A program made the position numbers and the translations under genes. Source: Candidatus Sulfomarinibacteraceae bacterium (lineage in GTDB: Bacteria > Acidobacteriota > Thermoanaerobaculia > Thermoanaerobaculales > Sulfomarinibacteraceae). From it: a stretch of DNA of 64,000 bases. Shown piece after piece: positions 29,463-45,173 of this stretch (positions are counted from its first letter, which is position 1; every line of letters begins with the position of its first letter). Location: contig CAVQQC010000022.1 of the NCBI GenBank assembly GCA_963714895.1, positions 94,746 through 158,745 of the forward strand, read 5' to 3'. Below the pieces are notes generated by a model. That model saw nothing but the letters and a program-made list of their open reading frames with translations, was not told where the DNA came from and made no database searches.

Positions 29463-29468
<6 letters not shown>

Positions 29469-32321: not shown

Positions 32322-32350
32322 TTGACAACTCCAGAATCCTGTTTTATGCT
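32322..32350 (+). promoter_or_regulatory. Putative intI promoter
   Basis: TTGACA (32322-32327), 17 nt, TATGCT (32345-32350). The ATG at 32365 would leave a very short leader. Confidence 0.45.
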
Positions 32351-32364
32351 CCATTTACACCATC

Positions 32365-33376
32365 ATGGGAAACGTTCAACAGTTCCCCGTCGCCGCCTCC
32401 CGGCGCCCCCGGCGCCTCATGGACCGGGTCATTTCCGAGATCCGGGTCCGCCACTACTCGATCCGGACCGAAGAGGCCTACACCGCCTGGATCCGGCGCT
32501 ACATCCGGTTTCACCGCAGCCACCCGCGCGATCTCGACGGCGACGACCTCAACCGCTTTCTGACCCACCTCGCCGAACACGACCGGGTCGCGGTCTCGAC
32601 CCAGCGCCAGGCCATGTCCGCCATCCTCTTCCTCTACCGCCACGTGCTCAAGACCAACTTCGAGTGGCTCGACGACGTGGTGCGCGCCCGCCAACCGCGC
32701 CGCCTGCCCAACGTCCTCAGCCGCGAAGAAGTGGCGGCCGTGCTCTCCCGTCTCGAGGGCATCCCACAGCTCGTGGTGCTGCTGCTCTACGGCACCGGCA
32801 TGCGGATCCTCGAGTGCCTGCGGCTTCGCGTCCAGGACATCGACTTCGATCTCGGCCACATCACCATCCGCCGACCCAAGGGCGGCCGCGACCGGGTGAC
32901 CATGCTTCCGGAATCCACCCGCGACCGCCTGCAGCGACCACCTGATCAACGGTCCGCACTCTCCACGAACAGGACCTCGCGGAAGGCTTCGGCAACGTCT
33001 ACCTGCCGGACGCCCTCGCCCGCAAGTATCCCCACGCCGACCGCGACTGGAAATGGCAGTACGTCTTCCCGGCCGCCAGCCGCGGCATCGATCCGCGCAC
33101 CGGCATCGATCGCCGCCACCACCTCCACGAGTCGGTCATCCGAAAGGCCGTCTACGCCGCGGCTCGCGCTGCAGCCATTCCGAAGAAGGTCAGCTGCCAC
33201 ACCTTTCGCCACAGCTTCGCGACCCACCTCCTGATGGCCGGCCACGACATCCGCACCATCCAGGAACTGCTCGGCCACAAAGACGTCAAGACCACCATGA
33301 TCTACACCCACATCCTCGGCAACTCGGCGGGCGCGGCGTCACCAGCCCGGCCGACACCCTCGGGACGGCAGCGTGA
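32365..33376 (+). pseudogene. intI: Integron integrase IntI (three single-base indels as assembled; probably intact in reality)
   Basis: RVRHYSIRTEEAYTAWIRRYIRFH; box I GTGMRILECLRLRVQDID; IntI-specific insert [23 protein letters not shown]; box [15 protein letters not shown]; catalytic Tyr in [13 protein letters not shown]; C-terminal [10 protein letters not shown]. Frame changes at about 32937, 32952 and 33325-33330. Confidence 0.85.
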
Positions 33377-33377
33377 G

Positions 33378-33404
33378 CACGCTAACATCCGTCGTGTTAG
33401 CGTG
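33378..33404 (+). other. 9-bp perfect inverted repeat CACGCTAAC-N9-GTTAGCGTG (attI/attC-like core; candidate recombination site)
   Basis: Contains AAC...GTT cores right after the corrected intI stop (33374-33376). Confidence 0.3.
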
Positions 33405-33465
33405 CGATCCAAGCACGATAACACGACCATCGGTTGTTGAAAAAGAACTGATCTGAAATCAATTA

Positions 33466-33494
33466 TTGACTTGAGATCAATTGCGATATAGATT
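33466..33494 (+). promoter_or_regulatory. Putative outward promoter downstream of intI (Pc-like, or the TA-pair promoter)
   Basis: TTGACT (33466-33471), 17 nt, TAGATT (33489-33494). 12 nt upstream of the ATG at 33506. Confidence 0.45.
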
Positions 33495-33505
33495 GGAAAC
33501 TGGCC

Positions 33506-33820
33506 ATGGTGGGCAGGCCGGACATCACGGAGCAGTTGCCTGGCGGCCAGGCGTTGCGTCTCGCGAAGACGGTCATTCGCGATGGGTCGACGGTCTTCAC
33601 CCGGCACGCGCGCGACGAGATGGAGAATGACGATCTTCTGGAAACAGACGTGGTCAACGCCATCAGCGGGGGAGTGATCAGCGAGCCGGGAGAGCTAGGG
33701 CACAGGGGCGACTGGTGCTATCGAGTCAGGACCGGCAGGGTGACCGTGGTGATCATGTTCCGAAGTGTCGGGGAGATGGTGGTTGTGACGGCATGGCGAG
33801 AGCGGCGGAGAGGACGATGA
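33506..33820 (+). CDS. DUF4258-like small protein (putative toxin)
   Basis: 104 aa, FTRHARDEMENDDLLETDVVNAI...VTVVIMFRSVGEMVVVTAW. ATGA overlap with the downstream antitoxin-like gene. Confidence 0.6.
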   Translation: MVGRPDITEQLPGGQALRLAKTVIRDGSTVFTRHARDEMENDDLLETDVVNAISGGVISEPGELGHRGDWCYRVRTGRVTVVIMFRSVGEMVVVTAWRERRRGR

Positions 33821-34317
33821 AAGAAAAGGTCTCGTGTCTGGAGTGTGGCGCCTTCATGGAGATCACGTTGGGCCCATATCGTTACGGCCGAGGGCTCGAC
33901 GTAGTGGTCCACGACGTCGAGACCAGGCGTTGCCCGGAGTGCGGCCACGACGAGGTGGTGATCCCAAGAATCGAGGAGCTCCACAGGACCATCGCGCGCG
34001 CGATCTCTCAGAGACCGGCCCGCCTCGAGCCCAATGAGATCCGTTTTCTGAGAACCTACCTGGGGTACTCGAGCATGGATTTCGCCGCGTTGCTGGGGGT
34101 GACGCCGGAAACCGTGTCGCGATGGGAACGGACGTCGAAGCCGCAGAAGATGGGGAAAGTGGCTGAACGCCTGCTCCGGATGCTGGCCCAGTACGGGGAA
34201 CCCGATCGGATCTACGACCTCGAGGCCGTGCTGCTGACTGACGGTAACGCTCGCGGAACGGGCCCGGTCATGATCGCCCAATCGAGCGGATCGTGGAAGG
34301 TCGCCGAGGCATGTTGA
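33817..34317 (+). CDS. MqsA/YgiT-type antitoxin-like protein (zinc ribbon + XRE HTH)
   Basis: CLECG...CPECG zinc ribbon followed by the HTH IRFLRTYLGYSSMDFAALLGVTPETVSRWE. Confidence 0.7.
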   Translation: MKEKVSCLECGAFMEITLGPYRYGRGLDVVVHDVETRRCPECGHDEVVIPRIEELHRTIARAISQRPARLEPNEIRFLRTYLGYSSMDFAALLGVTPETVSRWERTSKPQKMGKVAERLLRMLAQYGEPDRIYDLEAVLLTDGNARGTGPVMIAQSSGSWKVAEAC

Positions 34318-34393
34318 GTCGCGCTACCCGTCCTGTTCGCAACGGAATGTTATTTCGTCGAATCCGTACGTCTCGTTCCCTAGCTTTAGTATC

Positions 34394-34410
34394 GCTAATA
34401 TGAGTTAGGC
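34394..34410 (+). other. Candidate attI simple site (GCTAA-N5-GTTAGGC)
   Basis: gctaatatgaGTTAGGC. The layout resembles the L-box/R-box arrangement of known attI sites, and the R box is identical to the array's attC R' core. Confidence 0.35.
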
Positions 34411-34440
34411 AATAGTACTTTCCGCGCACATAGAGTCTTT

Positions 34441-34641
34441 ATGGAAGATCTGCGGCACCGAATCAAAGAAGTGGCGAAAAGGGCTGAAGCGGCCGGGAGG
34501 ACGAATTTCTCATGGCGCAATCTCCTGGTTGAGCTATTGCAAATAACCGAAACGCTCCAATCGAGGGTTAAACCTCCGTCTGGCGAAATGGGACGATCGC
34601 TGGGTTCGCCCATCAATTGCGAAGATCAGCACGATGTGTAA
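34441..34641 (+). CDS. Hypothetical protein (first cassette-like unit)
   Basis: 66-aa ORF only; no recognisable motifs. The rest of 34635-34960 holds only short or broken ORFs. Confidence 0.3.
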   Translation: MEDLRHRIKEVAKRAEAAGRTNFSWRNLLVELLQITETLQSRVKPPSGEMGRSLGSPINCEDQHDV

Positions 34642-34968
34642 CCCGAAGTTGGCGCGTATACTCCGTGCTGAGGCAACGGCACAGAGCAAGCCTCCCAGCC
34701 GGCTCGTCGCCGACATTGTGAAGCAATTCGTGTCAAATCCCCAGCAGAGGAGACTGACACGTGGTGGAATGCGCCGACCAAAGTTGTCCGCGCCCTAATG
34801 GGACGCGAAACGTTGACTGCCGCCGTCGATCCGCCCATTAAGGAGATGTTTGAATCCATGATTCCTCGTGTAAAGGGCGTCTTGCAAACAAAAGTCAGCT
34901 TCTCGCTTGGGTCATCTGGAATCATCTAGGCCGCCCCACAGACCGAAGTTGACAATGACAAATGATCT

Positions 34969-35035
34969 GCCTAACACCTCATTCCAGCGGACCCTCACCG
35001 CCGCGGTTCGGTCCGCTGAATTGGGGCCGTTAGGC
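34969..35035 (+). other. attC site (family 1)
   Basis: GCCTAAC acctcattccagcggacc...ggtccgctgaattggggcc GTTAGGC. Confidence 0.85.
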
Positions 35036-35130
35036 TCTGAAAAACATGAGCGATTGCAAACCCCGAATCGCAACTGACCTGGACTGATCTCATTATCGAA
35101 GATGTCAAACCGGAAGACGCCGGTCGCTGG

Positions 35131-35506
35131 TTGGCAGAATGGGACTGGCTCGTGTCTGGACGATTGGCTCGGTGTTTGATCACGATGTTCGGAGACTGGT
35201 TCCTGCCAGAAGCCCGACGGATCTACGCAGATGCTCGATGTCCTGGAAGGCACGGTGAAGACTGTCGCCAATACTCCTGGAGAGTTCCGGTTGTTGGTCA
35301 ACGATCAGACCTGGCAAGAAGAAAATCTGCTCTCACCGCTCGTACTCAGACTCCACGAGGGCGGGATGATTCTCGGTAAACACCAATGCTATGCGGTGGC
35401 ACCGCATCCGCTCTTGGTCGGGAAGACTGAGCCGGAATTCATCATGGTCATGGATCTCTCCGTGTGGCAATCAATCTGTTCTCAGACGTTTTATCGGAAG
35501 GCCTAG
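35131..35506 (+). pseudogene. DUF1851/Tdi1-like cassette protein, frame-disrupted as assembled
   Basis: GDWFLPEARRIYADA in one frame joins MLDVLEGTVKTVANTPGEF...QCYAVAPHPLLVGKTEPEFIMVMDLSVWQSICSQ in the next (about 35225). The N-terminus is also broken. Confidence 0.4.
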
Positions 35507-35529
35507 ATTCGGTATGAGTTGCGATATGC

Positions 35530-35598
35530 GCCTAACACCTCATTCCAGCGGACCCCCACCCGCGGCGGGTGGTGTCCGCTGAATTCGGACCGTTAGGC
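35530..35598 (+). other. attC site (family 1)
   Basis: GCCTAAC...cccacccgcggcgggtgg...GTTAGGC, 69 bp. Confidence 0.88.
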
Positions 35599-35619
35599 CA
35601 TCGCTGGGAGGACAACGTC

Positions 35620-35940
35620 GTGATTTGGACACTCTCGAGAGACAGCGCTCCGCTCGAGGCACCGTTAGTTCGGCACTGTGATCATTGCGGTGGCGATGAA
35701 CTCTCGCAGGACTACTTGTGGTACAGCTTTGTTTCGGTCTACGGACTCTTCCCGTTTATTAAATCGAAATCACTTGTTCGAGTTTGTGCCAGGTGCGGCA
35801 CGGAACACGACCTCGGCCCGGAAGCAGTTCCCAACCATGCAAGTCGCGAGATTCCGTTTTTTCGGCGGTTTGGGTGTTTGCTCTTGGTCGGCTTTCTTGT
35901 GGTCTTTGCAGGGGTTTCATTTGTTATCAACAACCCGTAG
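35620..35940 (+). CDS. Hypothetical cassette protein: zinc-ribbon-like CxxC pairs plus a C-terminal TM helix
   Basis: HCDHCGG...CARCG, then FGCLLLVGFLVVFAGVSFVI. GTG start just after the attC. Confidence 0.5.
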   Translation: MIWTLSRDSAPLEAPLVRHCDHCGGDELSQDYLWYSFVSVYGLFPFIKSKSLVRVCARCGTEHDLGPEAVPNHASREIPFFRRFGCLLLVGFLVVFAGVSFVINNP

Positions 35941-35950
35941 GATTCTGCGT

Positions 35951-36019
35951 GCCTAACACCTCATTCCAGCGGACCCCCACCCGCGGCGGGTGGTGTCCGC
36001 TGAATTCGGACCGTTAGGC
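35951..36019 (+). other. attC site (family 1)
   Basis: GCCTAAC...GTTAGGC, 69 bp. Confidence 0.88.
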
Positions 36020-36151
36020 CGGTCAGGTAGGTAAGGTGAGTAGCAGGAACATCACACACCGTTGGGGCAAGTGCAGTGCCAAACCGGAGGCGCGGTTTCG
36101 GACACCGTCAGTGGAACGCGCTTCCGACGTGAACGCGGAAATATTGTCCGC
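36020..36151 (+). other. ORF-less 132-bp cassette
   Basis: Bounded by two canonical attC sites. The only ORF (36036-36218) runs into the attC. Contains the hairpin AAACCG-gaggcg-CGGTTT. Confidence 0.6.
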
Positions 36152-36220
36152 GCCTAACACCTCATTCCAGCGGACCCCCACCCGCGGCGGGTGTGGTCCG
36201 CTGAATTCGGACCGTTAGGC
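36152..36220 (+). other. attC site (family 1)
   Basis: GCCTAAC...GTTAGGC, 69 bp. Confidence 0.88.
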
Positions 36221-36236
36221 CAGCAGGAAACGAGAC

Positions 36237-36914
36237 ATGGGCACAAGCGTAGACATCGTAGCCTTTGCAGATACCGGCGAGCCTCTTGATGTTTGGGCCC
36301 ATCGGTTGGTCGCAATCTCGACCGCCGCCGAACCGTCTGGTGATGTTGTCGTTCATCTCACCCGAACACCGGCTGGTTCTCATCGCTTCCTTTGGATCGG
36401 GATCTCGGATGACCGCGGTATTAACGCTGGGCTCTACGAGGAAGCTGCCCGGATCGCGAGCGAGTATTCCGAGAATCCCGTGATCGCCGCCTGGTACTCG
36501 GATTCAGCAGGGATGGCTGGATACAAGGTCTTTGAACAGGGCAGGTGTTCGTCTTCAAATGATACTGAGTTGTCCCCGGAAATCGACATCGTCAACCTAT
36601 TCTGCAGACCCTTTGGCGAAGCCTATCCCGGGTCAGAGATTGGCTGTCCTGACGATGTCTTTGACTTATGCTACGGCGAGAACGCAACCGAGGAATCCTA
36701 TGTAATTGGGTCATCCGGGACGCCGCTAGAATCTCCGCAATCTTGGCTTCCACCTCCGCCCGAACCGCAGGGCTGGCGAATCCCACATGAGTTTCGGTGG
36801 GGCAGAAAACCCCGTTCGTTCCTCAAGGGCTTGGCAGTAGTCTTTGGGCTTCTGTCCACAGGTTTGATTCTATTCACCGTCGGTTGGTTCTTGTATGAGA
36901 CAGTATTGAAATAG
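36237..36914 (+). CDS. Hypothetical cassette protein with a C-terminal TM anchor
   Basis: 225-aa ORF filling the cassette. C-terminal LAVVFGLLSTGLILFTVGWFLY. No recognisable family. Confidence 0.55.
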   Translation: MGTSVDIVAFADTGEPLDVWAHRLVAISTAAEPSGDVVVHLTRTPAGSHRFLWIGISDDRGINAGLYEEAARIASEYSENPVIAAWYSDSAGMAGYKVFEQGRCSSSNDTELSPEIDIVNLFCRPFGEAYPGSEIGCPDDVFDLCYGENATEESYVIGSSGTPLESPQSWLPPPPEPQGWRIPHEFRWGRKPRSFLKGLAVVFGLLSTGLILFTVGWFLYETVLK

Positions 36915-36923
36915 GCATGCGAT

Positions 36924-36998
36924 GCCTAACACCTCATTCCAGCGGACCCGAGTCCGCGGCGGCCGCGGCCTCGGTCCGCTGAATTCGGACCGTTAGGT
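36924..36998 (+). other. attC site (family 1 variant, 75 bp)
   Basis: GCCTAAC...GTTAGGT. Confidence 0.85.
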
Positions 36999-37010
36999 AG
37001 AATTCCCTAA

Positions 37011-37463
37011 ATGAAAAGAACTGACCCTGTTTTGCGCCGCTATCTCGCCGTTGGACCCTTGTATCTGCCGATCGCCACAATCGTTGTTCATATCATCGGC
37101 AGCATGGTTTTGGACGTGGCAACTGGCGGGTTCGGCGGTATTCTAGCCGCCCCGATTCTGGCGATTTTCGGTTTGGTTGTTCTGCCCGTCGAACTCCTTG
37201 CTGTCACTCTGCAGTGGTACCTTTACTATGCGCTGTCCTTTTCGAAACGAGCATTCCGGATGCTGTTTGTCGTTTCGGCCGTTCTCGTGCCGGCTCTGGT
37301 TGCGATCCTGGGACCAAAGGAAGAAAATTCTGAAGTCCAATGGGCAGTTGGCTTCGGGATAGGTGCGGCGGTGGCCGGAATTTCGACACTCCTGGCGCTT
37401 CGGTGGATCGTTAGAGCTATTTCGAAAAGCCTCGAAAGGGGAATTCCGGCGACATCAGAATAA
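37011..37463 (+). CDS. Hypothetical integral membrane cassette protein
   Basis: 150 aa with about 4 TM helices. No recognisable family. Confidence 0.55.
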   Translation: MKRTDPVLRRYLAVGPLYLPIATIVVHIIGSMVLDVATGGFGGILAAPILAIFGLVVLPVELLAVTLQWYLYYALSFSKRAFRMLFVVSAVLVPALVAILGPKEENSEVQWAVGFGIGAAVAGISTLLALRWIVRAISKSLERGIPATSE

Positions 37464-37483
37464 TTGGGGAGCAAAATACGTAC

Positions 37484-37553
37484 ACCTAACACCTCATTCC
37501 AGCGGACCCTCACCCGCGGCGGGTGGCGGTCCGCTGAATTCGGACCGTTACGT
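37484..37553 (+). other. attC site (family 1, degenerate R' GTTACGT)
   Basis: ACCTAAC acctcattccagcggaccc...GTTACGT. Confidence 0.8.
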
Positions 37554-37572
37554 CGTCAATCGAAGTACATGG

Positions 37573-37601
37573 TTGCACGGTTACCGTGAAAGCATTATAT
37601 T
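37573..37601 (+). promoter_or_regulatory. Putative cassette-borne promoter (higBA-1)
   Basis: TTGCAC, 17 nt, TATATT. Confidence 0.4.
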
Positions 37602-37621
37602 GAAACGAGAGGTGGCAGGCC

Positions 37622-37915
37622 GTGATCGTCTCGTTCGGTGACAAGGCAACCGAGGCCGTTTTTGACGGAACCCCTGTTCGATTGCTGAAGAGGTTTCCGG
37701 CCGATGTTCTGAAGAGAGCGATTCAAAAACTCGACTACCTCAACGGTATTTCTGAGCTCGCTGATCTTGAAGCCCCTCCGGGGAATCGACTCGAAGCGCT
37801 CAAGGGCGACCTGAAGGGTATGCATAGCATTCGAGTAAACGACCAATGGAGAATCGTATTTCGTTGGCATGGCTCTGATGCTCGTGAGGTCAGACTCGTG
37901 GACTACCACCGGTAA
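37622..37915 (+). CDS. higB: HigB-type toxin (RelE superfamily, plasmid maintenance killer protein)
   Basis: LEAPPGNRLEALKGDLKGMHSIRVNDQWRIVFRW...VRLVDYH. Confidence 0.8.
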   Translation: MIVSFGDKATEAVFDGTPVRLLKRFPADVLKRAIQKLDYLNGISELADLEAPPGNRLEALKGDLKGMHSIRVNDQWRIVFRWHGSDAREVRLVDYHR

Positions 37916-37928
37916 AGGAGAGAATCCG

Positions 37929-38216
37929 ATGATCCCCAAGAACCGTGTTCCGACGCATCCGGGAGAGATTCTCCTTGAGGAGTTCTTGATTCCCATGGGT
38001 CTTTCCCAAGTCAAATTCGCCGCACATATCGGTGTTCCGGTACAGCGGGTCAATGAAATCGTCCGTGGCAAGCGTGGCATCACGCCTGAGACTGCCTGGT
38101 TGTTCGCCCAGGCATTTGGCACCACTCCGCAGCTTTGGGTCAACCTGCAGACAAACTATGATCTCGCACAGAGCAAACCTGATCGAAAGGTGCGGCAACT
38201 CAGAAAGGCTGGATAG
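37929..38216 (+). CDS. higA: HigA antitoxin (XRE HTH)
   Basis: THPGEILLEEFLIPMGLSQVKFAAHIGVPVQRVNEIVRGKRGITPETAWLFAQAFGTTPQLWVNLQ. Confidence 0.85.
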   Translation: MIPKNRVPTHPGEILLEEFLIPMGLSQVKFAAHIGVPVQRVNEIVRGKRGITPETAWLFAQAFGTTPQLWVNLQTNYDLAQSKPDRKVRQLRKAG

Positions 38217-38224
38217 TACGTGAT

Positions 38225-38293
38225 ACCTAACACCTCATTCCAGCGGACCCTCACCCGCGTTGGGTGCGGTCCGCTGAATTCGGACCGCTAGGC
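38225..38293 (+). other. attC site (family 1, degenerate R' GCTAGGC)
   Basis: ACCTAAC...GCTAGGC. Confidence 0.8.
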
Positions 38294-38303
38294 GTTTAAC
38301 GCC

Positions 38304-38332
38304 TTGACATCAAAGCGTCATGACGCTATAAC
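38304..38332 (+). promoter_or_regulatory. Putative cassette-borne promoter with palindromic operator
   Basis: TTGACA, 17 nt, TATAAC. The spacer contains the perfect palindrome GCGTCATGACGC. Confidence 0.5.
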
Positions 38333-38338
38333 GTTTTT

Positions 38339-38569
38339 ATGAGTGATCCCAAACGTACGACGGTCTATTTTGACCCTGAAATCCACCAGGCGCTGCGGCT
38401 GAAATCGGCAGTCTCTGAACGGTCCATATCTGAAATGGTCAACGACGCCGTCCGTAGCTCGTTGGCAGAGGACGCCGAGGATCTTGCGGCCTTCGATGAC
38501 AGGGCGGATGAACCTGCAGTCGACTTCGAGGATTTTGTAAAGAAGATGAAACGCAGTGGCAAGCTTTAA
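38339..38569 (+). CDS. Ribbon-helix-helix (CopG-like) antitoxin
   Basis: KRTTVYFDPEIHQALRLKSAVSERSISEMVNDAV. Overlaps the toxin gene start. Confidence 0.7.
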   Translation: MSDPKRTTVYFDPEIHQALRLKSAVSERSISEMVNDAVRSSLAEDAEDLAAFDDRADEPAVDFEDFVKKMKRSGKL

Positions 38570-38891: not shown

Positions 38892-38893
38892 CC

Positions 38894-38922
38894 TTGACTC
38901 CGTGGTGCGATACATGTACATT
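38894..38922 (+). promoter_or_regulatory. Putative cassette-borne promoter with operator
   Basis: TTGACT, 17 nt, TACATT. Overlaps the 9-bp inverted repeat ACATGTACA-N7-TGTACATGT. Confidence 0.5.
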
Positions 38923-38952
38923 AATCCTGTACATGTGAGACGGGAGGCAGAT

Positions 38953-39243
38953 ATGCCGACAGTGACAACCTACACAAACGCCAGAGCCACTCTCGCAGCG
39001 CTTTGTGAGAAAGTGTCATCGACTCGGGAGCCGGTGATCATTCGGCGCCGCAACGCGGAGGATGTCGCACTGGTTTCTGCGGACGAGCTTGAGAGTATTT
39101 TGGAAACCGCCCATCTGATGCGTTCCCCGAAGAACGCGGAGCGGCTCTTAGCTGCTCTCACGCGAGCGCAAGCCAGTGAGCTGCCTCCGTCATCGATCGA
39201 GGAACTTCGAAAAGAGCTCGGACTTGGCCAAGAAACGAAGTAG
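38953..39243 (+). CDS. yefM: Phd/YefM family antitoxin
   Basis: TYTNARATLAALCEKVSSTREPVIIRRRNAEDVALVSADELESILETAHLMRSPKNAERL. Confidence 0.8.
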   Translation: MPTVTTYTNARATLAALCEKVSSTREPVIIRRRNAEDVALVSADELESILETAHLMRSPKNAERLLAALTRAQASELPPSSIEELRKELGLGQETK

Positions 39244-39259
39244 GGGCGACAAGACAACG

Positions 39260-39526
39260 GTGACTCGCGAATGGGTAGCTGTATTTCAGCCCGAATTCGT
39301 GGAGGACCTCAAGTTCTGGGTGAAAACGAATCGAAAGGTGGCTCTTCGCGCACTCGACCTCGTTCAAGCTGTTTTGCGCGACCCGTTTGCAGGCATCGGG
39401 AAACCTGAACCGCTCAAGTACCTTCCTAGCGGTTCATGGTCGCGCCGTCTCACTGAAGAGCACCGAATTGTCTACCTTGTGAGTGACGGTCGGATCGACT
39501 TCCTGCAAGCCCGCTATCACTATTGA
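39260..39526 (+). CDS. yoeB: Txe/YoeB family toxin
   Basis: DPFAGIGKPEPLKYLPSGSWSRRLTEEHRIVYLVSDGRIDFLQARYHY. Start is uncertain (GTG 39260). Confidence 0.8.
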   Translation: MTREWVAVFQPEFVEDLKFWVKTNRKVALRALDLVQAVLRDPFAGIGKPEPLKYLPSGSWSRRLTEEHRIVYLVSDGRIDFLQARYHY

Positions 39527-39533
39527 TGTGCCT

Positions 39534-39602
39534 GCCTAACACCTCATTCCAGCGGACCCCCACCCGCGGCGGGTGGTGTCCGCTGAACTCGGACCGTTGG
39601 CG
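39534..39602 (+). other. attC site (family 1) whose R' reads GTTGGCG because of the downstream insertion
   Basis: GCCTAAC...ggaccG|TTggcg. Confidence 0.8.
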
Positions 39603-39755
39603 CGGCGCTACGCGCCGCCCCAACAGACGGGAGTTAAATGTACGCCCGGTGTCCGGCGCGGCGCCGGCCAACCGTGCGTTCAAGCTGGCGGACGCAGGCT
39701 ACAGTCGCACGCGGCGTGCGCCTGATATCCTGCGCCGCAGCTTAACTCCCGCCCG
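39597..39755 (+). mobile_element. 159-nt ORF-less structured element / micro-cassette, copy 1
   Basis: Starts TTGGCGCGGCGCTACGCGCCGCC, ends TTAACTCCCGCCCG, followed by TTAGC. The long-range stem AACAGACGGGAGTTAA/TTAACTCCCGYCYGTT encloses branched hairpins. Confidence 0.7.
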
Positions 39756-39778
39756 TTAGCTGATCTTCAGATCCGACC

Positions 39779-39807
39779 TTGACAAGGTGTACAAATGTAC
39801 ATACATT
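39779..39807 (+). promoter_or_regulatory. Putative cassette-borne promoter (brnTA)
   Basis: TTGACA, 17 nt, TACATT. The spacer contains TGTACA-AA-TGTACA. Confidence 0.5.
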
Positions 39808-39814
39808 TATTTCA

Positions 39815-40087
39815 GTGACAGTTGAGTGGGATCCCGCCAAGGCTCGTTCCAATCTAGCGAAGCATGGGATTGATTTCGCCGACGCTTCAATCGCTCTTGA
39901 AGACGAATTCGCGCTCACGATCGAAGACAAATCTGCTGGTGGCGAGCAACGATTCCTTACTCTGTGTCGTGATCCAAATAGTCAGGTGATTGTCGTCGTC
40001 CACACGTATCGTGGCGAGACGGTCAGGATTATCTCGGCTCGGAAGGCCACGAACCGCGAACGTCAGACCTACGAGGTGAAAACATGA
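39815..40087 (+). CDS. brnT: BrnT toxin (DUF497)
   Basis: VEWDPAKARSNLAKHGIDFADA...RIISARKATNRERQTY. Confidence 0.8.
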   Translation: MTVEWDPAKARSNLAKHGIDFADASIALEDEFALTIEDKSAGGEQRFLTLCRDPNSQVIVVVHTYRGETVRIISARKATNRERQTYEVKT

Positions 40088-40338
40088 AACGAGAGTATGA
40101 CTTCAAGAACGGAAAGCGTGGGGCGGTTGTCCGGCCGGCGGCCGGGAAGACACGAATCACTATCCGAATTGATGACGATGTCTTGGCGTGGTTCAAGGAC
40201 GAGGTGCGTGAAGCGGGCGGTGGGAATTACCAATCCCTTATCAACGCTGCTCTGCGGGAACATATCGATTATCAGGAGGAACCCCTGGAAGACACCCTTC
40301 GCAAGGTAATTCGCGAAGAGCTCAGGAATGCCAGCTAA
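40084..40338 (+). CDS. brnA: BrnA antitoxin
   Basis: EYDFKNGKRGAVV...RITIRIDDDVLAWFKDEVREAGGGNYQSLINAALREHI. ATGA overlap with brnT. The stop is the TAA in the attC R''. Confidence 0.8.
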   Translation: MKREYDFKNGKRGAVVRPAAGKTRITIRIDDDVLAWFKDEVREAGGGNYQSLINAALREHIDYQEEPLEDTLRKVIREELRNAS

Positions 40339-40401
40339 CACCTCATTCCAGCGGACCCCCACCCGCGGCGGGTGGTGTCCGCTGAACTCGGACCGTTGGC
40401 G
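40333..40401 (+). other. attC site (family 1; R'' AGCTAAC, R' GTTGGCG)
   Basis: AGCTAAC acctcattccagcggacc...ggaccG|TTggcg. Confidence 0.8.
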
Positions 40402-40554
40402 CGGCGCTACGCGCCGCCCCAACAGACGGGAGTTAAATGTACGCCCGGTGTCCGGCGCGGCGCCGGCCACCCGTGCGTTCAAGCTGACGGACGCAGGCTA
40501 CAGTCGCACGCGGCGTGCGCCTGATATCCTGCGCCGCAGCTTAACTCCCGCCTG
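40396..40554 (+). mobile_element. 159-nt ORF-less structured element / micro-cassette, copy 2
   Basis: Near-identical to 39597-39755. Ends ...ctcccgcctG followed by TCAGGC. Confidence 0.7.
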
Positions 40555-40588
40555 TCAGGCCTTTCACGGTGTCGAGTACAATCCTCAT

Positions 40589-40822
40589 GTGTACTTCGAA
40601 ATAGTTGGTGAAATCAGTGACGTCGAGACGATTGCTGCGGGGAACGCGATCCGGGAACTCGATCGCCTCCACAAACTGTATGGCAAGGCAAAGTGGCGAA
40701 AGGTAAAGGGTGTGTGCGAGATTCGGCTCTTGAGTGGTCTCGTGGTCAAGGCGGAGTTACATTGGTATGAGGCGCATGGGATTGGCAGGCGGGAATTCAA
40801 GGTCAAGCGCCTGATGGATTGA
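40589..40822 (+). CDS. Hypothetical small protein (first gene of an uncharacterised two-gene cassette)
   Basis: YGKAKWRKVKGVCEIRLLSGLVVKAELHWYEAHGIGRREFKVKRL. Start is uncertain (GTG 40589). Confidence 0.5.
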   Translation: MYFEIVGEISDVETIAAGNAIRELDRLHKLYGKAKWRKVKGVCEIRLLSGLVVKAELHWYEAHGIGRREFKVKRLMD

Positions 40823-40825
40823 AAA

Positions 40826-41059
40826 ATGATGATTGAGCAAGATATTTCATTCGTGTTGTGCGTTGAAAACGAGGGTTTCGAAGTCTCCCTCGAGAAGCGT
40901 AAGGTCTATCTTCGGTTGGCCGGTGAACCGGATGGCGATGATCGATTGATCCGCGTCATCGATGAGTCAGGCGAGGACTATCTTTTCCCTTCGGAGTTTT
41001 TTGTTCCGATCATCCTCCCTAAAGCTGCAACGGCCGTATTCGAAGAAGCTTCAGCCTAA
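40826..41059 (+). CDS. Hypothetical small acidic protein (second gene of the two-gene cassette)
   Basis: VENEGFEVSLEKRKVYLRL...LIRVIDESGEDYLFPSEFFVPIILP. 3-nt gap from the upstream ORF. The stop is the TAA in the attC R''. Confidence 0.55.
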   Translation: MMIEQDISFVLCVENEGFEVSLEKRKVYLRLAGEPDGDDRLIRVIDESGEDYLFPSEFFVPIILPKAATAVFEEASA

Positions 41060-41122
41060 CACCTCATTCCAGCGGACCCCCACCCGCGGCGAGTGTGGTC
41101 CGCTGAACTCGGACCGTTAGGG
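41054..41122 (+). other. attC site (family 1)
   Basis: GCCTAAC...GTTAGGG. Confidence 0.85.
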
Positions 41123-41132
41123 ACGACCTGGC

Positions 41133-41161
41133 TTGACAGTTGATTCGCCAGAATGTATCTT
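41133..41161 (+). promoter_or_regulatory. Putative cassette-borne promoter (mazEF)
   Basis: TTGACA, 17 nt, TATCTT. Confidence 0.45.
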
Positions 41162-41182
41162 CTTTGTAGATACGGAGGCGTT

Positions 41183-41425
41183 ATGAAAACTCAGGTCCAA
41201 AAATGGGGAAACAGCCTGGCTCTCAGGATTCCGAAAGCCTTTGCGGCTGACCTGGGATTGGCACACGACACCCCGGTTGAGCTTTCTCTTGAAGACGGCA
41301 ATCTTGTAATCCGCCCGTCGTCGATTCAGCGTTATGAACTCAGCAGCCTATTGACGCGAGTCACGGAAGCAAACGTGCATGGTGAGCAGGACAACGGCGA
41401 CGCTGTCGGATCCGAAGAGTGGTAG
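41183..41425 (+). CDS. mazE: MazE/AbrB-type antitoxin (SpoVT-AbrB domain)
   Basis: MKTQVQKWGNSLALRIPKAFAADLGL...LVIRP. Confidence 0.8.
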   Translation: MKTQVQKWGNSLALRIPKAFAADLGLAHDTPVELSLEDGNLVIRPSSIQRYELSSLLTRVTEANVHGEQDNGDAVGSEEW

Positions 41426-41760
41426 CTGGAAAAGAGGCCCCGCAACGTGGTGACGTGGTCTGGGTTTCGCTGAACCCGCAGGCCGGCCACGAACAGGAAG
41501 GTCGAAGGCCTGCGCTGGTTCTGTCGCCGGTTGAGTACAACGAACGGGTCGGTTTGGCGCTGATGTGTCCGGTGACGAGCAAAGTCAAAGGCTATCCGTT
41601 CGAGGTACCTCTTCCAGAAGACCTCGATATTGGAGGCGTGGTACTGGCCGATCAGGTCAAGAGTCTCGATTGGAGAGTTCGCAGAGCTGAGCATGCTTGC
41701 ACCGTGCCTCAGTCCGTCATGAATGAAGTGCTCGGAAAACTCAATGCGCTCCTCACGTGA
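41419..41760 (+). CDS. mazF: MazF/PemK family endoribonuclease toxin
   Basis: PQRGDVVWVSLNPQAGHEQEGRRPALVLSP...CPVTSKVKGYPFEV...VLADQVKSLDW. Confidence 0.85.
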   Translation: MVAGKEAPQRGDVVWVSLNPQAGHEQEGRRPALVLSPVEYNERVGLALMCPVTSKVKGYPFEVPLPEDLDIGGVVLADQVKSLDWRVRRAEHACTVPQSVMNEVLGKLNALLT

Positions 41761-41785
41761 TGAAGGACCGCTTGATGACTGTGAG

Positions 41786-41854
41786 CCCTAACACCTCATT
41801 CCATCGGACCCCCACCCGCGGCGGGTGTGGTCCGCTGAACTCGGACCGTTAGGT
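41786..41854 (+). other. attC site (family 1)
   Basis: (G)CCCTAAC...GTTAGGT. Confidence 0.85.
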
Positions 41855-41879
41855 TTACAATGGGTTTGGAGACACAGCC

Positions 41880-42077
41880 ATGAAGTACAAAGTAGCCCTT
41901 CACGAAGACGAAGAAGGCTTCGCCGTTTCTGTACCCGGACTTCCAGGATGTTGGTCTCAAGGTGGCACCGAAAGGGAAGCTCTCGAAAATATCGAAGCAG
42001 CGATTCGTGAGTACCTTGAGGTCGTTGACGATCTCATCGGTGACTCAATGGTTCGCGAGATCGAAATCGCGGTCTGA
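41880..42077 (+). CDS. hicB: HicB antitoxin (short form)
   Basis: YKVALHEDEEGFAVSVPGLPGCWSQGGTEREALENIEAAIREYLE. Confidence 0.8.
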   Translation: MKYKVALHEDEEGFAVSVPGLPGCWSQGGTEREALENIEAAIREYLEVVDDLIGDSMVREIEIAV

Positions 42078-42079
42078 AG

Positions 42080-42292
42080 TTGCCTCGAATACCTGGCGTC
42101 AACCACCTTGCGGCCGTCAGGGCACTCGAAAAGGCCGGATTTCGCATCGCCCGCCAGAGCAAACATATCGTTATGACCGACGGCACGCGAATTGTCACGA
42201 TTCCGCGGCACAATCCTGTCAACGCATTCACGCTGGGTGGAATCGTCCGAGACGCCGGCCTCACCGTTGAGGAGTTCAGGGCGTTGCTGTGA
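42080..42292 (+). CDS. hicA: HicA toxin
   Basis: AVRALEKAGFRIARQSKHIVMTDGTRIVTIPRHNPVNAFTLGGIVRDAGLTVEEF. Confidence 0.8.
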   Translation: MPRIPGVNHLAAVRALEKAGFRIARQSKHIVMTDGTRIVTIPRHNPVNAFTLGGIVRDAGLTVEEFRALL

Positions 42293-42299
42293 TCCATCC

Positions 42300-42374
42300 A
42301 CCTAACTCCTCATTCCAGCGGACCCCCACCCCCACCCGCGGCGGGTGTGGTCCGCTGAACTCGGACCGTTGGCG
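42300..42374 (+). other. attC site (family 1 variant, 75 bp; R' GTTGGCG)
   Basis: ACCTAAC tcctcattccagcggacccccacccccacccgcgg...ggaccG|TTggcg. Confidence 0.8.
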
Positions 42375-42527
42375 CGGCGCTTCGCGCCGCCCCAACAGAC
42401 GGGAGTTTAATGTGCGCCCGGTGTCCGGCGCGGCGCCGGCCAACCGTGCGTTCAAGCTGACGGACGCAGGCTACAGTCGCACGCGGCGTGCGCCTGATAT
42501 CCTGCGCCGCAGCTTAACTCCCGTCTG
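42369..42527 (+). mobile_element. 159-nt ORF-less structured element / micro-cassette, copy 3
   Basis: Near-identical to copies 1 and 2. Here the closing stem is perfect (aacagacgggagtt/aactcccgtctgtt). Followed by TTAGGG. Confidence 0.7.
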
Positions 42528-42552
42528 TTAGGGTATGAAAGAAACGTAACGC

Positions 42553-42581
42553 TTGACGTTATTAACGCGACGCATTATTAT
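42553..42581 (+). promoter_or_regulatory. Putative cassette-borne promoter (higBA-2)
   Basis: TTGACG, 17 nt, TATTAT. Confidence 0.5.
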
Positions 42582-42587
42582 AGTACT

Positions 42588-42869
42588 GTGATTCGGAGCT
42601 TCAAAGACCCAGAGGCCGAACGGATTTTCAAGCGTGAACGTTCTAGAAAGCTCCCGCAGAACATCTACCGCTCGGCTTTGAAGAAGCTTCTCGTGCTTGA
42701 CGCCGCCGATGCTTTGGCCGATCTGAGAGTTCCGCCCGGGAATCGCCTTGAAAAGCTGTCCGGGGATCGAAAGGGTCAACACAGCATCCGGATCAACGAT
42801 CAGTGGAGGATCTGCTTCCGCTGGAGAAACGGCGATGCCCTCGATGTGGAAATCGCCGACTATCACTAA
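42588..42869 (+). CDS. higB: HigB-type toxin (second copy, divergent)
   Basis: LRVPPGNRLEKLSGDRKGQHSIRINDQWRICFRW...VEIADYH. Confidence 0.8.
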   Translation: MIRSFKDPEAERIFKRERSRKLPQNIYRSALKKLLVLDAADALADLRVPPGNRLEKLSGDRKGQHSIRINDQWRICFRWRNGDALDVEIADYH

Positions 42870-42876
42870 GGACGGA

Positions 42877-43185
42877 ATGATGGCGAAGAAACTGGTGGAC
42901 CCAATTCACCCTGGCGAGATCTTGATGGAGGAGTTCCTTGAGCCTCTGGGTGTCAGTCAGTATCGGCTGTCCAAGGACATCAGTGTGCCTCCACGTCGCA
43001 TCAACGAGATTGTCCATGGCAAGCGCTCGATTACAGCGGACACGGCGCTTCGGCTTGCACGTTTCTTTGGAACGACTGAGCGGTTCTGGCTCAATCTCCA
43101 GGTTCGTTATGACCTCGAAGTCGAAAAGGACCGTCTTGAAGACGTGCTCGATCGCGATGTAACAGTGTTCCAGGCCGTTGGGTAA
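42877..43185 (+). CDS. higA: HigA antitoxin (second copy)
   Basis: IHPGEILMEEFLEPLGVSQYRLSKDISVPPRRINEIVHGKRSITADTALRLARFFGTTERFWLNLQ. Confidence 0.85.
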   Translation: MMAKKLVDPIHPGEILMEEFLEPLGVSQYRLSKDISVPPRRINEIVHGKRSITADTALRLARFFGTTERFWLNLQVRYDLEVEKDRLEDVLDRDVTVFQAVG

Positions 43186-43194
43186 AGTAATGAG

Positions 43195-43269
43195 CCCTAA
43201 CACCTCATTCCAGCGGACCCCCACCCCCACCCGCGGCGGGTGTGGTCCGCTGAACTCGGACCGTTAGGC
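43195..43269 (+). other. attC site (family 1 variant, 75 bp)
   Basis: (G)CCCTAAC...cccacccccacccgcgg...GTTAGGC. Confidence 0.85.
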
Positions 43270-43282
43270 CAGAGACGAAAAC

Positions 43283-44032
43283 GTGGATGACACCTTCCAC
43301 CTCTACACAGACCTAGCGTGGCTGTGGCCAATGTGGGGCGATGCCACCACTGAATACGCGCACTATTGCCGGCACGTTACAGGCCTGATTCGACAGCACG
43401 CCAAGCGCCCGGTAGGCACCTTGCTGGACATTGGGTGCGGGGGCGGAAAAAACGTCTTGAATCTGAAGCGGGAGTTCAACGTCACCGGTGTTGATCTGAG
43501 TTCCGCCATGCTCGCACAGGCGAAAGAATTGAATCCAGAGTGCACGTTCATCCAAGGGGATATGCGAACGTTCAGGCTCGACAGTACCTTCGACGCCGTA
43601 ATGATGGATGATGCAATATCGTACATGAGTTGCCTCGCCGACTTCGTGGCGGCGTTTCGGACGGCGTATGCTCACCTGAACCCTGGCGGCGTTCTGGTCG
43701 CGACTCCGGATGCGACGACCGAGACTTTCCAGCAAAACAAGACGATCGTTACCCCCGCGACGCCCAAGGCCACACCGGCCGGCGTCGAGGTCGTGTTCGT
43801 TGAGAACACGTATGATCCCGACCCCACGGATGAGCAGTACGAAACGACGGTTTTGTATCTCATTCGTGTCCATGGGCGCCTCCGGATTGAGACCGACCAC
43901 TGGACCATGGGGATATTCAGTCTGGACACATGGAGGCGTGTTCTGCGCGAGGCCGGTTTCGAGGTGCATGAGGGACAGTACAGCACGGGCGAGGATGACT
44001 ACATGGTTTTCACCTGCGTTAAGGCAGGATGA
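43283..44032 (+). CDS. Class I SAM-dependent methyltransferase
   Basis: LLDIGCGGGKNV motif I, DAVMMDDAISYM, LNPGGVLV. Confidence 0.8.
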   Translation: MDDTFHLYTDLAWLWPMWGDATTEYAHYCRHVTGLIRQHAKRPVGTLLDIGCGGGKNVLNLKREFNVTGVDLSSAMLAQAKELNPECTFIQGDMRTFRLDSTFDAVMMDDAISYMSCLADFVAAFRTAYAHLNPGGVLVATPDATTETFQQNKTIVTPATPKATPAGVEVVFVENTYDPDPTDEQYETTVLYLIRVHGRLRIETDHWTMGIFSLDTWRRVLREAGFEVHEGQYSTGEDDYMVFTCVKAG

Positions 44033-44037
44033 AGGCC

Positions 44038-44090
44038 GCACAACGCGTTGCAGGCGACGCTTGACAGCGCGCCTGAACGCCACGTTAGGC
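44038..44090 (+). other. attC site of a different, shorter type (53 bp)
   Basis: GCACAAC-GCGTTGCAGGCG-acgcttgacagcg-CGCCTGAACGC-cac-GTTAGGC. The stem has one unpaired base, as attC sites typically do. Confidence 0.65.
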
Positions 44091-44123
44091 GACAACGATC
44101 GTTTCTCGGTACATAATTGACCC

Positions 44124-44364
44124 GTGAGTCCTACCGTCTTTCGAAGCGGCCCGTACCGGTTTTATTTCTTTTCCAGGGAAGAGCCGCGATTGCACATCCA
44201 TGTCGATTCAGCCAAACGGGGAGGCCAAGTACTGGATCGAACCGGCTGTAGAATTGGCTCGAAGTCACGGTCTTTCAGAACCCGAGTTGGTTCGGGTACG
44301 TAAACTAGTAGAGGAGCACGAGGATGTCATCCGTACAGCATGGGACAAGCAATTCGGTGGCTGA
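44124..44364 (+). CDS. DUF4160 family protein (one frameshift as assembled)
   Basis: VSPTVFRSGPYRFYFFSREEPRLHIHVDSA..., then in the next frame AKYWIEPAVELARSHGLSEPELVRVRKLVEEHEDVIRTAWDKQFGG. The join is at the GGGG run at about 44218-44221. Confidence 0.6.
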
Positions 44365-44590
44365 GGTCACCAACATCTCCAGGCACGGCGTCTGGCTGCT
44401 GGTGGACGACCGCGAGCTCTTCATGCCCTTCGATGAGTTTCCCTGGTTCAAAAACGCGCCGGTCAATTCCGTCCTCAAGCTCGAGCGCCCCGGTCACAAT
44501 CACCTTTATTGGCCTGCTCTCGATGTCGACCTCACGGTTGAATCAATCGAGCATCCTGAGAGATACCCGCTCAAAGCCAAGCATGCCTAA
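44324..44590 (+). CDS. DUF2442 family protein
   Basis: VAEVTNISRHGVWLLVDDRELFMPFDEFPWFKNA. Usual partner of DUF4160. The stop is the TAA in the attC R''. Confidence 0.7.
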   Translation: MSSVQHGTSNSVAEVTNISRHGVWLLVDDRELFMPFDEFPWFKNAPVNSVLKLERPGHNHLYWPALDVDLTVESIEHPERYPLKAKHA

Positions 44591-44653
44591 CACCTCGTTC
44601 CAGCGGACCCCCACCCGCGGCGGGTGCGGTCCGCTGAAATCGAACCGTTAGGA
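44585..44653 (+). other. attC site (family 1)
   Basis: GCCTAAC acctcgttccagcggacc...GTTAGGA. Confidence 0.85.
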
Positions 44654-44660
44654 GTCGCAG

Positions 44661-45083
44661 ATGGCTGATTCGATTCTCCACGGTGGTTGTTTCTGCAATT
44701 CCGTGCGTTACAAACTCAACGGGTCATTGCAGAACGCCAGGGCCTGCCATTGCTCCCGCTGCCGCAAGGCCTTCAGCGGCGCATCTTCGGCCTATGCGGA
44801 AATCCCACCATCCGGTTCACTCGAATGGCTGACGGGCGAGGACCTTCTTTCGATCCACGATACGGGAGGCGGGTGGGGAATGGCGTTCTGCTCGAAATGC
44901 GGCTCCACCCTGTGTGGGATGCATGGCGGAAAAGTCCATGGCCTGGCATTGGGGTGCATCGACGGTGACCCGGGTGTCGAGATCGAGATGCACATCTTCG
45001 TGGGTTCGAAGGCGCCGTGGGACCATATTGGCGGTAACGCAAGACAGTATGCCGAACACGCTCAATCTGACGATGACGACTGA
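44661..45083 (+). CDS. GFA family protein (glutathione-dependent formaldehyde-activating/CENP-V-like)
   Basis: GGCFCNSVRYKL...CHCSRCRK...FCSKCGSTL zinc-binding cysteines. Confidence 0.8.
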   Translation: MADSILHGGCFCNSVRYKLNGSLQNARACHCSRCRKAFSGASSAYAEIPPSGSLEWLTGEDLLSIHDTGGGWGMAFCSKCGSTLCGMHGGKVHGLALGCIDGDPGVEIEMHIFVGSKAPWDHIGGNARQYAEHAQSDDDD

Positions 45084-45092
45084 CGTGGGGGC

Positions 45093-45135
45093 GTCGAACA
45101 CCTCAAGTCAGCGAGAGCCGGACCGCCGGTTCGCC
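45093..45135 (+). other. Possible degenerate, short attC remnant
   Basis: GTCGAAC acctcaagtcagcgagagccggaccgccg GTTCGCC. It shares 'aacacctca' and 'cggaccg' with family 1 but is only 43 bp. Confidence 0.3.
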
Positions 45136-45173
45136 GATAATCCTTCGAAGCCCCGGAATAGGAGAAACGTCAG

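Follow-up and report, generated by a model that had tools for sequence, protein, structure and literature searches.

Reverse integrase layout at a probable sedentary chromosomal integron locus of a Candidatus Sulfomarinibacteraceae-related genome

Treponema denticola harbors a chromosomal integron, reportedly described by Coleman et al. in 2004 (PMC3607928; PMC6557892). Integrons in which the integrase gene is co-directional with the cassette array have been called "unusual" or "reverse" integrons, and they are known from T. denticola, Chlorobium phaeobacteroides, Blastopirellula marina, and an Acinetobacter strain (PMC6557892, PMC3607928). The "inverted integrase group" is attributed to Boucher 2007 in a passage of a later paper that cites it (PMC3575428). 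This group is paraphyletic according to Cury et al. 2016 (PMC4889954), and the reverse layout is treated as standard in integron-calling methods that cite IntegronFinder 2.0 (PMC13323075). For the chromosomal integrons of Acidobacteria, a taxon-specific covariance model of the cassette recombination sites (attC) is available (Ghaly et al. 2021; PMC8352920). No paper linking integrons with Sulfomarinibacter or Thermoanaerobaculia was found in the literature searched. The present analysis concerns a stretch of 64,000 nucleotides (nt), hereafter the window, of a Candidatus Sulfomarinibacteraceae bacterium (GCA_963714895.1, contig CAVQQC010000022.1, positions 94,746-158,745 of the forward strand), in which an integrase gene (intI) is followed by a primary recombination site (attI) and an array of cassettes. 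The locus is very probably a sedentary chromosomal integron with the inverted (reverse) integrase layout in a Candidatus Sulfomarinibacteraceae-related genome. Such an element of rare architecture had been proposed from the letters alone (the sequence-only reading), and its anatomy, the family of its integrase, the fold of its attC sites, its modularity, and its variation between genomes support the proposal. The layout is rare but already published, and the locus is a further example of it, not a new system.

All the elements of the locus, that is, intI, attI, the open reading frames (ORFs) of the cassettes, and the top strand of the attC sites, are found on the + strand, with intI pointing towards attI. 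The predicted co-direction of intI and array is therefore borne out (Table 1). The gene product is assigned to the integron integrases by several criteria, all of whose profile scores rest on a translation in which three indels were repaired. This translation reaches 433.6 bits on the TIGR02249 "integron integrase" model (cutoff 265), covering profile positions 2-315 of 315, while it obtains 139.8 bits on the XerC model (cutoff 335) and 137.8 on the XerD model (cutoff 330). A protein without the IntI domain or close to XerC/D, which the sequence-only reading had named as grounds for abandoning its proposal, was thus not what was found. Residues 26-330 align with VchIntIA (PDB 2A3V) with E = 3e-86, and the alignment includes the IntI-specific additional domain between patches II and III (ALxRKYPxAxxxWxWQxVFP), which is ungapped with respect to 2A3V. 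The tyrosine-recombinase boxes and the other motifs quoted earlier are all present. Of the motifs looked for around the catalytic residues R-K-H-R-H-Y, GMRILE, KGGRDR, HTFRHSF, GHKDV, and IYTH are all encoded in intI, the frame of which has three breaks.

The gene had initially been taken as one ORF, which does not hold, since three-frame translation divides it into four segments in three frames. The N-terminal part, up to ~32931, is in the first frame and is followed by five codons (DHLIN) in the second; the bulk of the protein, from VRTLHEQ to IYTHILGNS, is in the third, and the final 17 codons are back in the second. Four intact orthologues of 334-336 amino acids, 88-93% identical to the IntI of the window, were used as references (P0001, P0002, P0004, and P0012). 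Compared with them, intI has gained one base near 32931 and a G near 32950 and has lost one base near 33326. Intact orthologues at 81-95% identity number more than 100.

The array contains 15 copies of an imperfect palindrome of 67-75 nt on the + strand, between positions 34969 and 44653. At least 15 copies had been claimed downstream of intI on the same strand, and this number is confirmed by pattern, fold, and covariance model. The consensus of the copies is xCCTAAC-ACCTCATTC-CAGCGGACC-(GC-rich stem-loop)-GGTCCGCTG-AAyTCGGACC-GTTRRRY, in agreement with the boxes R''=RYYYAAC and R'=GTTRRRY named earlier. No chance match to the core patterns arose in dinucleotide-preserving shuffles. The copies fold as hairpins on either strand, with z-scores of -4 to -6.5; for instance, the site at 36152-36220 is predicted at -24.6 kcal/mol for the bottom strand versus -21.6 for the top strand. 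The predicted bottom-strand fold comprises an R box of 7-8 bp, an asymmetric unpaired spacer of 9/10 nt, an L box of 9 bp with 3 bp more beyond a bulged G on the '' arm, and a variable terminal stem. Compensatory changes are found in the terminal stem between copies of the window and of the related locus L001 (e.g., CCCTCACCCGCG/GCGGGTTCGG versus CCCGGGTCCGCG/GCGGCCCCGG). With a covariance model made from this family, all 15 sites score 77-99 bits on the + strand, against 15-39 bits when read on the - strand. These strong and strand-specific matches stand where the sequence-only reading had considered that a lack of model hits would speak against it. With filters off, the model detected nothing beyond the 15 sites with E below ~0.8 in the 64 kb. 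The spacings between attC sites are 201-1390 nt, and less than 4 kb, the limit used for membership, separates the sites from each other and from intI. Four ORFs, ending at 38828, 40338, 41059, and 44590, stop at the TAA within R'', as had been noticed. Each palindrome had been described as directly following a short ORF or ORF pair, but the array is not a simple succession of ORF and attC: three ORF-less units of 159 nt, whose attC-like fold is a different one, are intercalated.

A block of the attI type, TTAGTATCGCTAAyNNTAGTTAGG, is located 167-190 nt past the intI stop in four related loci (L001, L002, L003, and L090), 1027 nt past intI in L006, and ~1 kb past intI in the window. The core GCTAAy-N4-GTTAGG is kept in six loci, and the similarity between loci ends directly after GTTAGG. 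Judged from this conservation, which ends at the crossover, attI is the site listed in Table 1. It consists of inverted GCTAA/TTAGG boxes with 4 nt between them, which matches the published arrangement of attI sites as two inverted integrase-binding boxes with 4-5 bp between them (PMC12614218).

The point of exchange can be read from the cassettes themselves. The start of a cassette, after the G|TT of the preceding site, complements the R'' of the same cassette in 13 of the 15 cases, using four sequence types (GGC/GCC, GGT/ACC, GGG/CCC, and GCT/AGC). In the first cassette, for instance, the hexamer TTAGGC after the G of attI complements the GCCTAA of the first R''. One permutation in 100,000 reached the value of 13. 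When R'' is instead compared with the R' of its own site, only four of the 15 match. Because this complementarity is the signature expected of exchange at G|TT, the cassettes are taken as the units exchanged at this point.

The genomes nearest to the window are the metagenome-assembled genomes (MAGs) L003, L005, and L006, which are named Candidatus Sulfomarinibacteraceae (Acidobacteriota, Thermoanaerobaculia, Thermoanaerobaculales), so the guess of an "Acidobacteria-like" host was right. They are genomes distinct from that of the window, with nucleotide identities of at most ~92%. The chromosomal site is fixed across relatives by the synteny of the left flank (queA, a small ccoS/FixS gene, and a P-type ATPase gene) in L001, L002, L005, and L006, the attC sites are homogeneous, and toxin-antitoxin (TA) cassettes are present. 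The housekeeping flanks of L005 and L006 are 85-89% identical to the window. A comparison of cassette content between fixed flanks, which had been suggested as a check, shows that the left flank, intI, and attI are kept while the cassettes differ and some common ones are relocated. Cassette 8 is common to the window, L005, and L006; the BrnTA, MazEF, ParE, and ORF-less cassettes recur at other positions of the array in L005 or L006. The BrnTA cassette, for example, follows an ordinary attC in L006 and a 159-nt unit in the window. As these comparisons have it, the cassettes behave as mobile units. In the MazEF cassette, the attC of the window (41786-41854) and that of L006 (18301-18369) have identical cassette start and R'' and wholly different terminal loops, which suggests that attC loops are homogenised within each array by concerted evolution (gene conversion).

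The layout was surveyed in a subset of 80 related loci. Within the clade of 58-93% IntI identity, every relative with enough flanking sequence has the same co-oriented layout (L001, L003, L004, L005, L006, L090, and L034). In the first five, sites of the same attC family lie past the 3' end of intI and on its strand; L090, whose IntI is 71% identical, has 14 attC matches placed likewise, and in L034, an Acidobacteriota MAG whose IntI is 58% identical, two similar attC sites follow the gene. Four other contigs (L002, L013, L089, and L091) stop right past the 3' end of intI, as would be expected if a repeat array began there. In a Geothrix locus (L029) and a betaproteobacterial one (L032), both with IntI identities of 55-58%, the arrays are upstream of intI; the attC sites of L032 are on the strand opposite to intI, which is the classical layout. 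The family-specific covariance model gave no matches in seven loci of distant IntI relatives and three in L032, being too specific there, and the k-mer scan for palindromic repeats is usable for homogeneous arrays only.

Eight TA or TA-like pairs are recognised by Pfam in the cassettes: HigB/HigA (twice), RHH/ParE, Phd/YoeB, BrnT/BrnA, MazE/MazF, HicB/HicA, and DUF4160/DUF2442. HigB/HigA, RHH/ParE, Phd/YoeB, and the ORF-less cassette 4 are among the contents of cassettes 1-9. Other cassette genes encode an S-adenosylmethionine (SAM) methyltransferase, a Tdi1_C-like protein, a GFA protein, and several unknowns. Promoter-like sites are enriched in the scan (12 versus 4.5 +/- 2.3 expected), and they are found upstream of four TA cassettes, of the TA pair between intI and attI, and of intI. 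The cassettes had been described as AT-richer than the backbone, in agreement with a GC content of 0.559 (~0.56) in the array versus 0.666 in the left flank and 0.647 in the right flank (0.65-0.67). The GC skew of the + strand is positive over the entire window. By the general rule on GC skew, the + strand would be the leading strand, which would place the attC bottom (-) strand on the leading-strand template. The same orientation holds for 25 of the 30 sedentary chromosomal integrons in the study of Loot et al. (PMC5371416).

The 159-nt units, referred to here as mini-cassettes, have no credible ORF. A 5' hairpin is followed in them by a three-way junction, enclosed in a 14-bp stem that is closed by CCAAC...GTT. 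The predicted fold of the bottom DNA strand has -74.8 kcal/mol (z = -9.3), and a compensatory A-T/G-C change is found in one stem pair between copies. At attC sites 9, 10, and 13 the last bases are GTTGGCG and not GTTAGGx, since the G of each is followed by a mini-cassette. At its own end the unit regenerates GTTAGC, GTCAGG, or GTTAGG, and the next cassette complements its own R''; since the crossover is regenerated and the next cassette is self-complementary, the unit fills the exact place of an independent cassette. One copy is present after an attC site in each of L005 (18088-18249) and L006 (16175-16337), 96% identical to the unit of the window, which exceeds the 85-89% of the flanking housekeeping DNA. 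Comparison of the unit with Rfam at E <= 1 gave chance-level matches only, and the consensus scan gave no sigma-70-like promoter match in it. A search of metagenome contigs with an exact 18-mer of the unit returned six chance matches to unrelated sequence; the copies of L005 and L006 differ by one base from this 18-mer. The unit could be an attC-only cassette or a site-specific miniature inverted-repeat transposable element (MITE), and the modelled three-way junction could act as transcriptional or RNA-stability punctuation between cassettes. A joint reading, in which a "selfish" or regulatory attC-only cassette multiplying in arrays, the punctuation, the reverse layout, and the TA pair of the platform together make up a re-wired logic of integron expression, is doubtful. 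If it were true, transcription of intI reading into attI may co-transcribe cassettes with the integrase.

The platform, that is, the segment with intI and attI, has features of its own. In the window and L006, ~930 nt containing a TA pair replace the ~105 nt found between intI and attI elsewhere. This pair is present in L006 (~11100-11960) and absent from L001, L002, L003, and L090; by this comparison, the DUF4258/MqsA-like module sits inside the platform and not in a cassette. Its origin as a cassette inserted at the palindrome that follows intI was considered and rejected, as the homology with the relatives lacking the TA pair runs 25 nt past the palindrome. Both loci with the platform TA, those of the window and L006, have frame breaks in intI. 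The palindrome that directly follows the intI stop looks like inverted R boxes, and a similar one, CTAAC-N9-GTTAG, holds the corresponding position in L005 and L091. The palindrome may serve as a second site for IntI binding or as a structure at which transcripts end.

Table 1. Positions of the integron features in the window and of shared cassettes in related loci.
Feature	Position in window	Strand	Position in relative	Basis or remark
Candidate PintI, TTGACA-17-TATGCT promoter-like site upstream of intI	32322-32350	+		Consensus scan, 10/12 matches
intI, integron integrase gene	32365-33376	+		Frame broken by three single-base indels (~32931, ~32950, ~33326)
Palindrome CACGCTAAC-N9-GTTAGCGTG directly after intI stop	33378-33404	.		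Kept in L001, L002, L003
Platform TA module	33466-34317	+		Pfam, promoter scan
Promoter-like site of platform TA	33466-33494	+		Promoter scan
DUF4258 protein, platform TA	33506-33820	+		Pfam
Zinc-ribbon/HTH MqsA-like protein, platform TA	33817-34317	+		Pfam
attI core TTTAGTATCGCTAATATGA-GTTAGGC	34384-34410	+		Block kept in relatives; crossover between G34404 and T34405
Cassettes 1-9	34405-39596	+		attC, ORFs, Pfam
attC 1-5	34969-35035, 35530-35598, 35951-36019, 36152-36220, 36924-36998	+		Covariance model
attC 6-9	37484-37553, 38225-38293, 38823-38891, 39534-39602	+		Covariance model
ORF-less cassette 4, 201 nt, GC ~0.62	36014-36214	+	L005 14541-14820; ORF-less cassette 14611-14805	92.5% identical
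Mini-cassette (159 nt, ORF-less), copy 1	39597-39755	+		GC 0.70, own AAC...GTT stem, three-way junction
Cassette 10, BrnT/BrnA, attC 40333-40401	39756-40395	+		Pfam
Mini-cassette, copy 2	40396-40554	+		
Cassettes 11-13: two unknown ORFs, MazE/MazF, HicB/HicA	40555-42368	+		Pfam, covariance model
attC 11-13	41054-41122, 41786-41854, 42300-42374	+		Covariance model
Mini-cassette, copy 3	42369-42527	+		
Cassettes 14-15: HigB/HigA; SAM methyltransferase with DUF4160 (frame broken) and DUF2442	42528-44653	+		
attC 14-15	43195-43269, 44585-44653	+		Covariance model
Cassette 16: GFA-family protein 44661-45083, then decayed attC remnant ~45093-45135	44654-45135	+		Pfam, sequence inspection
Distal block, small genes	45136-47650	+		GC 0.575, Pfam
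Shared cassette BrnTA	39756-40401		L006 14839-15500	91.7% identity
Shared cassette MazEF	41055-41854		L006 17570-18369	91.1% identity
Shared cassette RHH/ParE			L005; L006	82% identity; 88% identity

The sixteenth "copy" of the palindrome, near 45093-45135, is a decayed remnant only, without a covariance-model match, and the count of 19 cassettes is obtained from the 15 with attC sites, the three mini-cassettes, and cassette 16. The end had been set at 45135, which probably falls short, as the low-GC region of small + strand genes runs on to ~47650. This distal block contains six genes, for a membrane protein, VF530, a DUF2784-like protein, DUF3788, TfoX_N, and an unknown, with short attC remnants such as GGACCGTT at 46254. 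In L001, VF530 and a homologue of the ORF at 47215-47646 are found after the last attC, with different genes between them. The block probably represents old cassettes that became fixed or lost their sites.

The coding quality of the window bears on how intI is to be read. Segmentation by codon-position GC content (Viterbi) flags frame switches all over the backbone, and several of them are confirmed by Pfam in essential genes. In the E1-beta gene, the Transket_pyr profile is split, with positions 2-101 in the ORF 29-1309 and positions 102-173 plus Transketolase_C in the ORF 642-1295, in a different frame. The E2 component of the 2-oxoacid dehydrogenase has its lipoyl and E3-binding domains in the frame of 1364-... 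and its catalytic domain in another one (ORF 1602-2615). The profile match of the menaquinone biosynthesis protein (VitK2_biosynth) ends at position 145 of 252, the cbb3 oxidase gene ccoN (COX1) lacks the first 59 profile positions, and the length of a MaoC dehydratase ORF is not divisible by three. The P-type ATPase gene (29466-31942, - strand) shows ~5 frame changes relative to its orthologues in L001 and L005 and the gene at 24220-26940 shows ~3, with zero in the genes at 18.5-23.4 kb and queA. Single-base frame breaks are seen throughout 1-64000 (e.g., 29-1309/642-1295, 1364-2615, 14414-15448, 24220-26940, 29466-31942, 48830-49235, and 60468-62931). Since a living cell cannot have all these essential genes inactivated, the window is taken to come from an indel-prone, probably long-read, assembly, and because the breaks are pervasive any call of a pseudogene in it is unsafe. 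That intI is a true pseudogene, as it had first seemed, lost weight when the essential genes were found split between frames. The three indels of intI, and likewise that of the DUF4160 gene among the cassettes, are more likely assembly artefacts than biology. The P-type ATPase gene beside the integron is fragmented in the window, in L002 (6800-9100), and in L006 (6500-9150) and intact in L001 and L005; its fragmentation could reflect a common error-prone sequence context or repeated decay beside the integron. Elsewhere in the window, two long intergenic hairpins (4030-4132 and 57521-57696) are formed by (TTCGGAT)n heptamer repeats opposite (ATCCGAA)n; their arms of 30-32 nt are 94-100% complementary with 38 nt between them, and they are AT-rich in a backbone of 66% GC. 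Rfam at gathering thresholds gave zero matches in the entire window.

Several points weigh against a complete and functional integron. The sequence of intI as given cannot encode a full-length protein, and the closest relative of the array, L006, also a long-read-style MAG, carries an intI frameshift of its own, so that the integrase of this sub-lineage could conceivably have undergone true decay. The attC covariance model was built from the 15 copies of the window themselves plus six from L001. In the predicted fold, the pairing of the L box is perfect and a single base is bulged; of the canonical pair of extrahelical bases, not both are evident. The covariance model recognises no attC in 45136-47650, where the assignment rests on composition, gene type, and remnants. 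The integron could be dead, with intI a true pseudogene by three real indels and the array a fossil that is retained by its TA cassettes and exchanges nothing. Three breaks within 1 kb, the frameshift in L006 (which shares the platform TA insertion and is broken independently), the greater density of indels in intI and the adjoining ATPase gene than in the 18.5-23.4 kb region or queA, and the mutation of some R' boxes (GCT at attC7 and GTC after mini-cassette 2) would fit this idea. It is nevertheless unlikely, given that E1-beta, E2, the menaquinone gene, ccoN, and MaoC are equally broken, which points to the assembly, and that intI is otherwise 90-95% identical to intact orthologues and keeps all its catalytic motifs, while the attC sites are intact and highly homogeneous.

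That the repeats are not attC sites at all, but palindromes of the repetitive extragenic palindromic (REP) or MITE kind lying by chance beside a tyrosine recombinase gene, could be suspected from the presence of other palindromic repeats in the window, namely the two hairpins just described. This is, however, extremely improbable. The repeats are confined to one block directly downstream of intI, in a single orientation, and have the RYYYAAC and GTTRRRY boxes; the complementarity between cassette start and own R'' marks the G|TT exchange point; six other assemblies likewise have this family after intI; and a curated model identifies the recombinase as an integron integrase. Likewise, an error-prone assembly might be suspected of having created the co-orientation through a misjoin or inversion across attC repeats in a classical divergent integron. 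Yet the 3' end of intI, the palindrome, and attI are contiguous in independent assemblies that stem from different projects (ENA ERZ25039514, GCA_942491035, three MFD MAGs, and a JGI metagenome contig), and attI with its GTTAGG is on the coding strand of intI in all of them, which leaves next to no room for such an artefact.

A sedentary, reverse-layout chromosomal integron is thus the favored explanation, and its working can be proposed from established integron biology, which supplies the recombination steps. The bottom (-) strand of attC would fold with the R and L boxes paired, the spacer unpaired, and a G bulged. IntI would excise cassettes by attC x attC recombination and insert them by attI x attC recombination, with the crossover at G|TT. 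Many cassettes are TA pairs that bring promoter-like sites of their own; these would keep the array stable and provide transcription from within it. In this sense, the recombination activity, strand choice, and expression of the locus are inferred by analogy.

The locus leaves the known working of integrons unchanged and adds a well-resolved reverse-integrase integron from an abundant uncultured lineage of Acidobacteriota (sediment or soil). More than 100 environmental IntI clusters are at least 81% identical to the IntI of the window. The layout is stable in this clade across IntI identities of 58-93%, while similarly distant integrases in other taxa are classical, and this distribution is consistent with repeated inversions, a proposal of Cury et al. 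(2016; PMC4889954). Experiments can now draw on defined attI and attC sequences and on intact orthologous integrases. For specialists, the points of interest are the platform TA, the multi-copy and possibly attC-only mini-cassette, and the apparent concerted evolution of attC loops.

Compared with the inverted integrons of the Treponema denticola type, the locus has in common a chromosomal sedentary array in which TA cassettes bring putative promoters of their own and ORF-less cassettes occur. It differs from them in the phylum of the host, Acidobacteriota (Thermoanaerobaculales), in its different and very homogeneous attC family of 67-75 nt, and in the position of attI, ~170-190 nt past the intI stop in relatives and ~1 kb here owing to the platform TA. 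With the Vibrio cholerae superintegron it shares an IntI that aligns over its full length with the IntI-specific insertion, a homogeneous lineage-specific attC family, an array rich in TA cassettes, and an attC bottom strand presumed to be on the leading-strand template; the orientation of intI is reversed, and ~19 cassettes are present here versus more than 100 there. The integrons of Acidobacteria described by Ghaly et al. (PMC8352920), compared by their description alone, belong to the same phylum and likewise have taxon-conserved attC sites. Finally, the 159-nt units and cassette 4 resemble the ORF-less promoter cassettes of Treponema and Vibrio (PMC6557892; bioRxiv 10.1101/2023.11.21.568050) in being short, without credible ORF, and kept between genomes. 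Unlike those cassettes, the 159-nt unit is without a sigma-70-like promoter match and is little else than an attC-like hairpin with a three-way junction (GC 0.70), of which this array has three copies.

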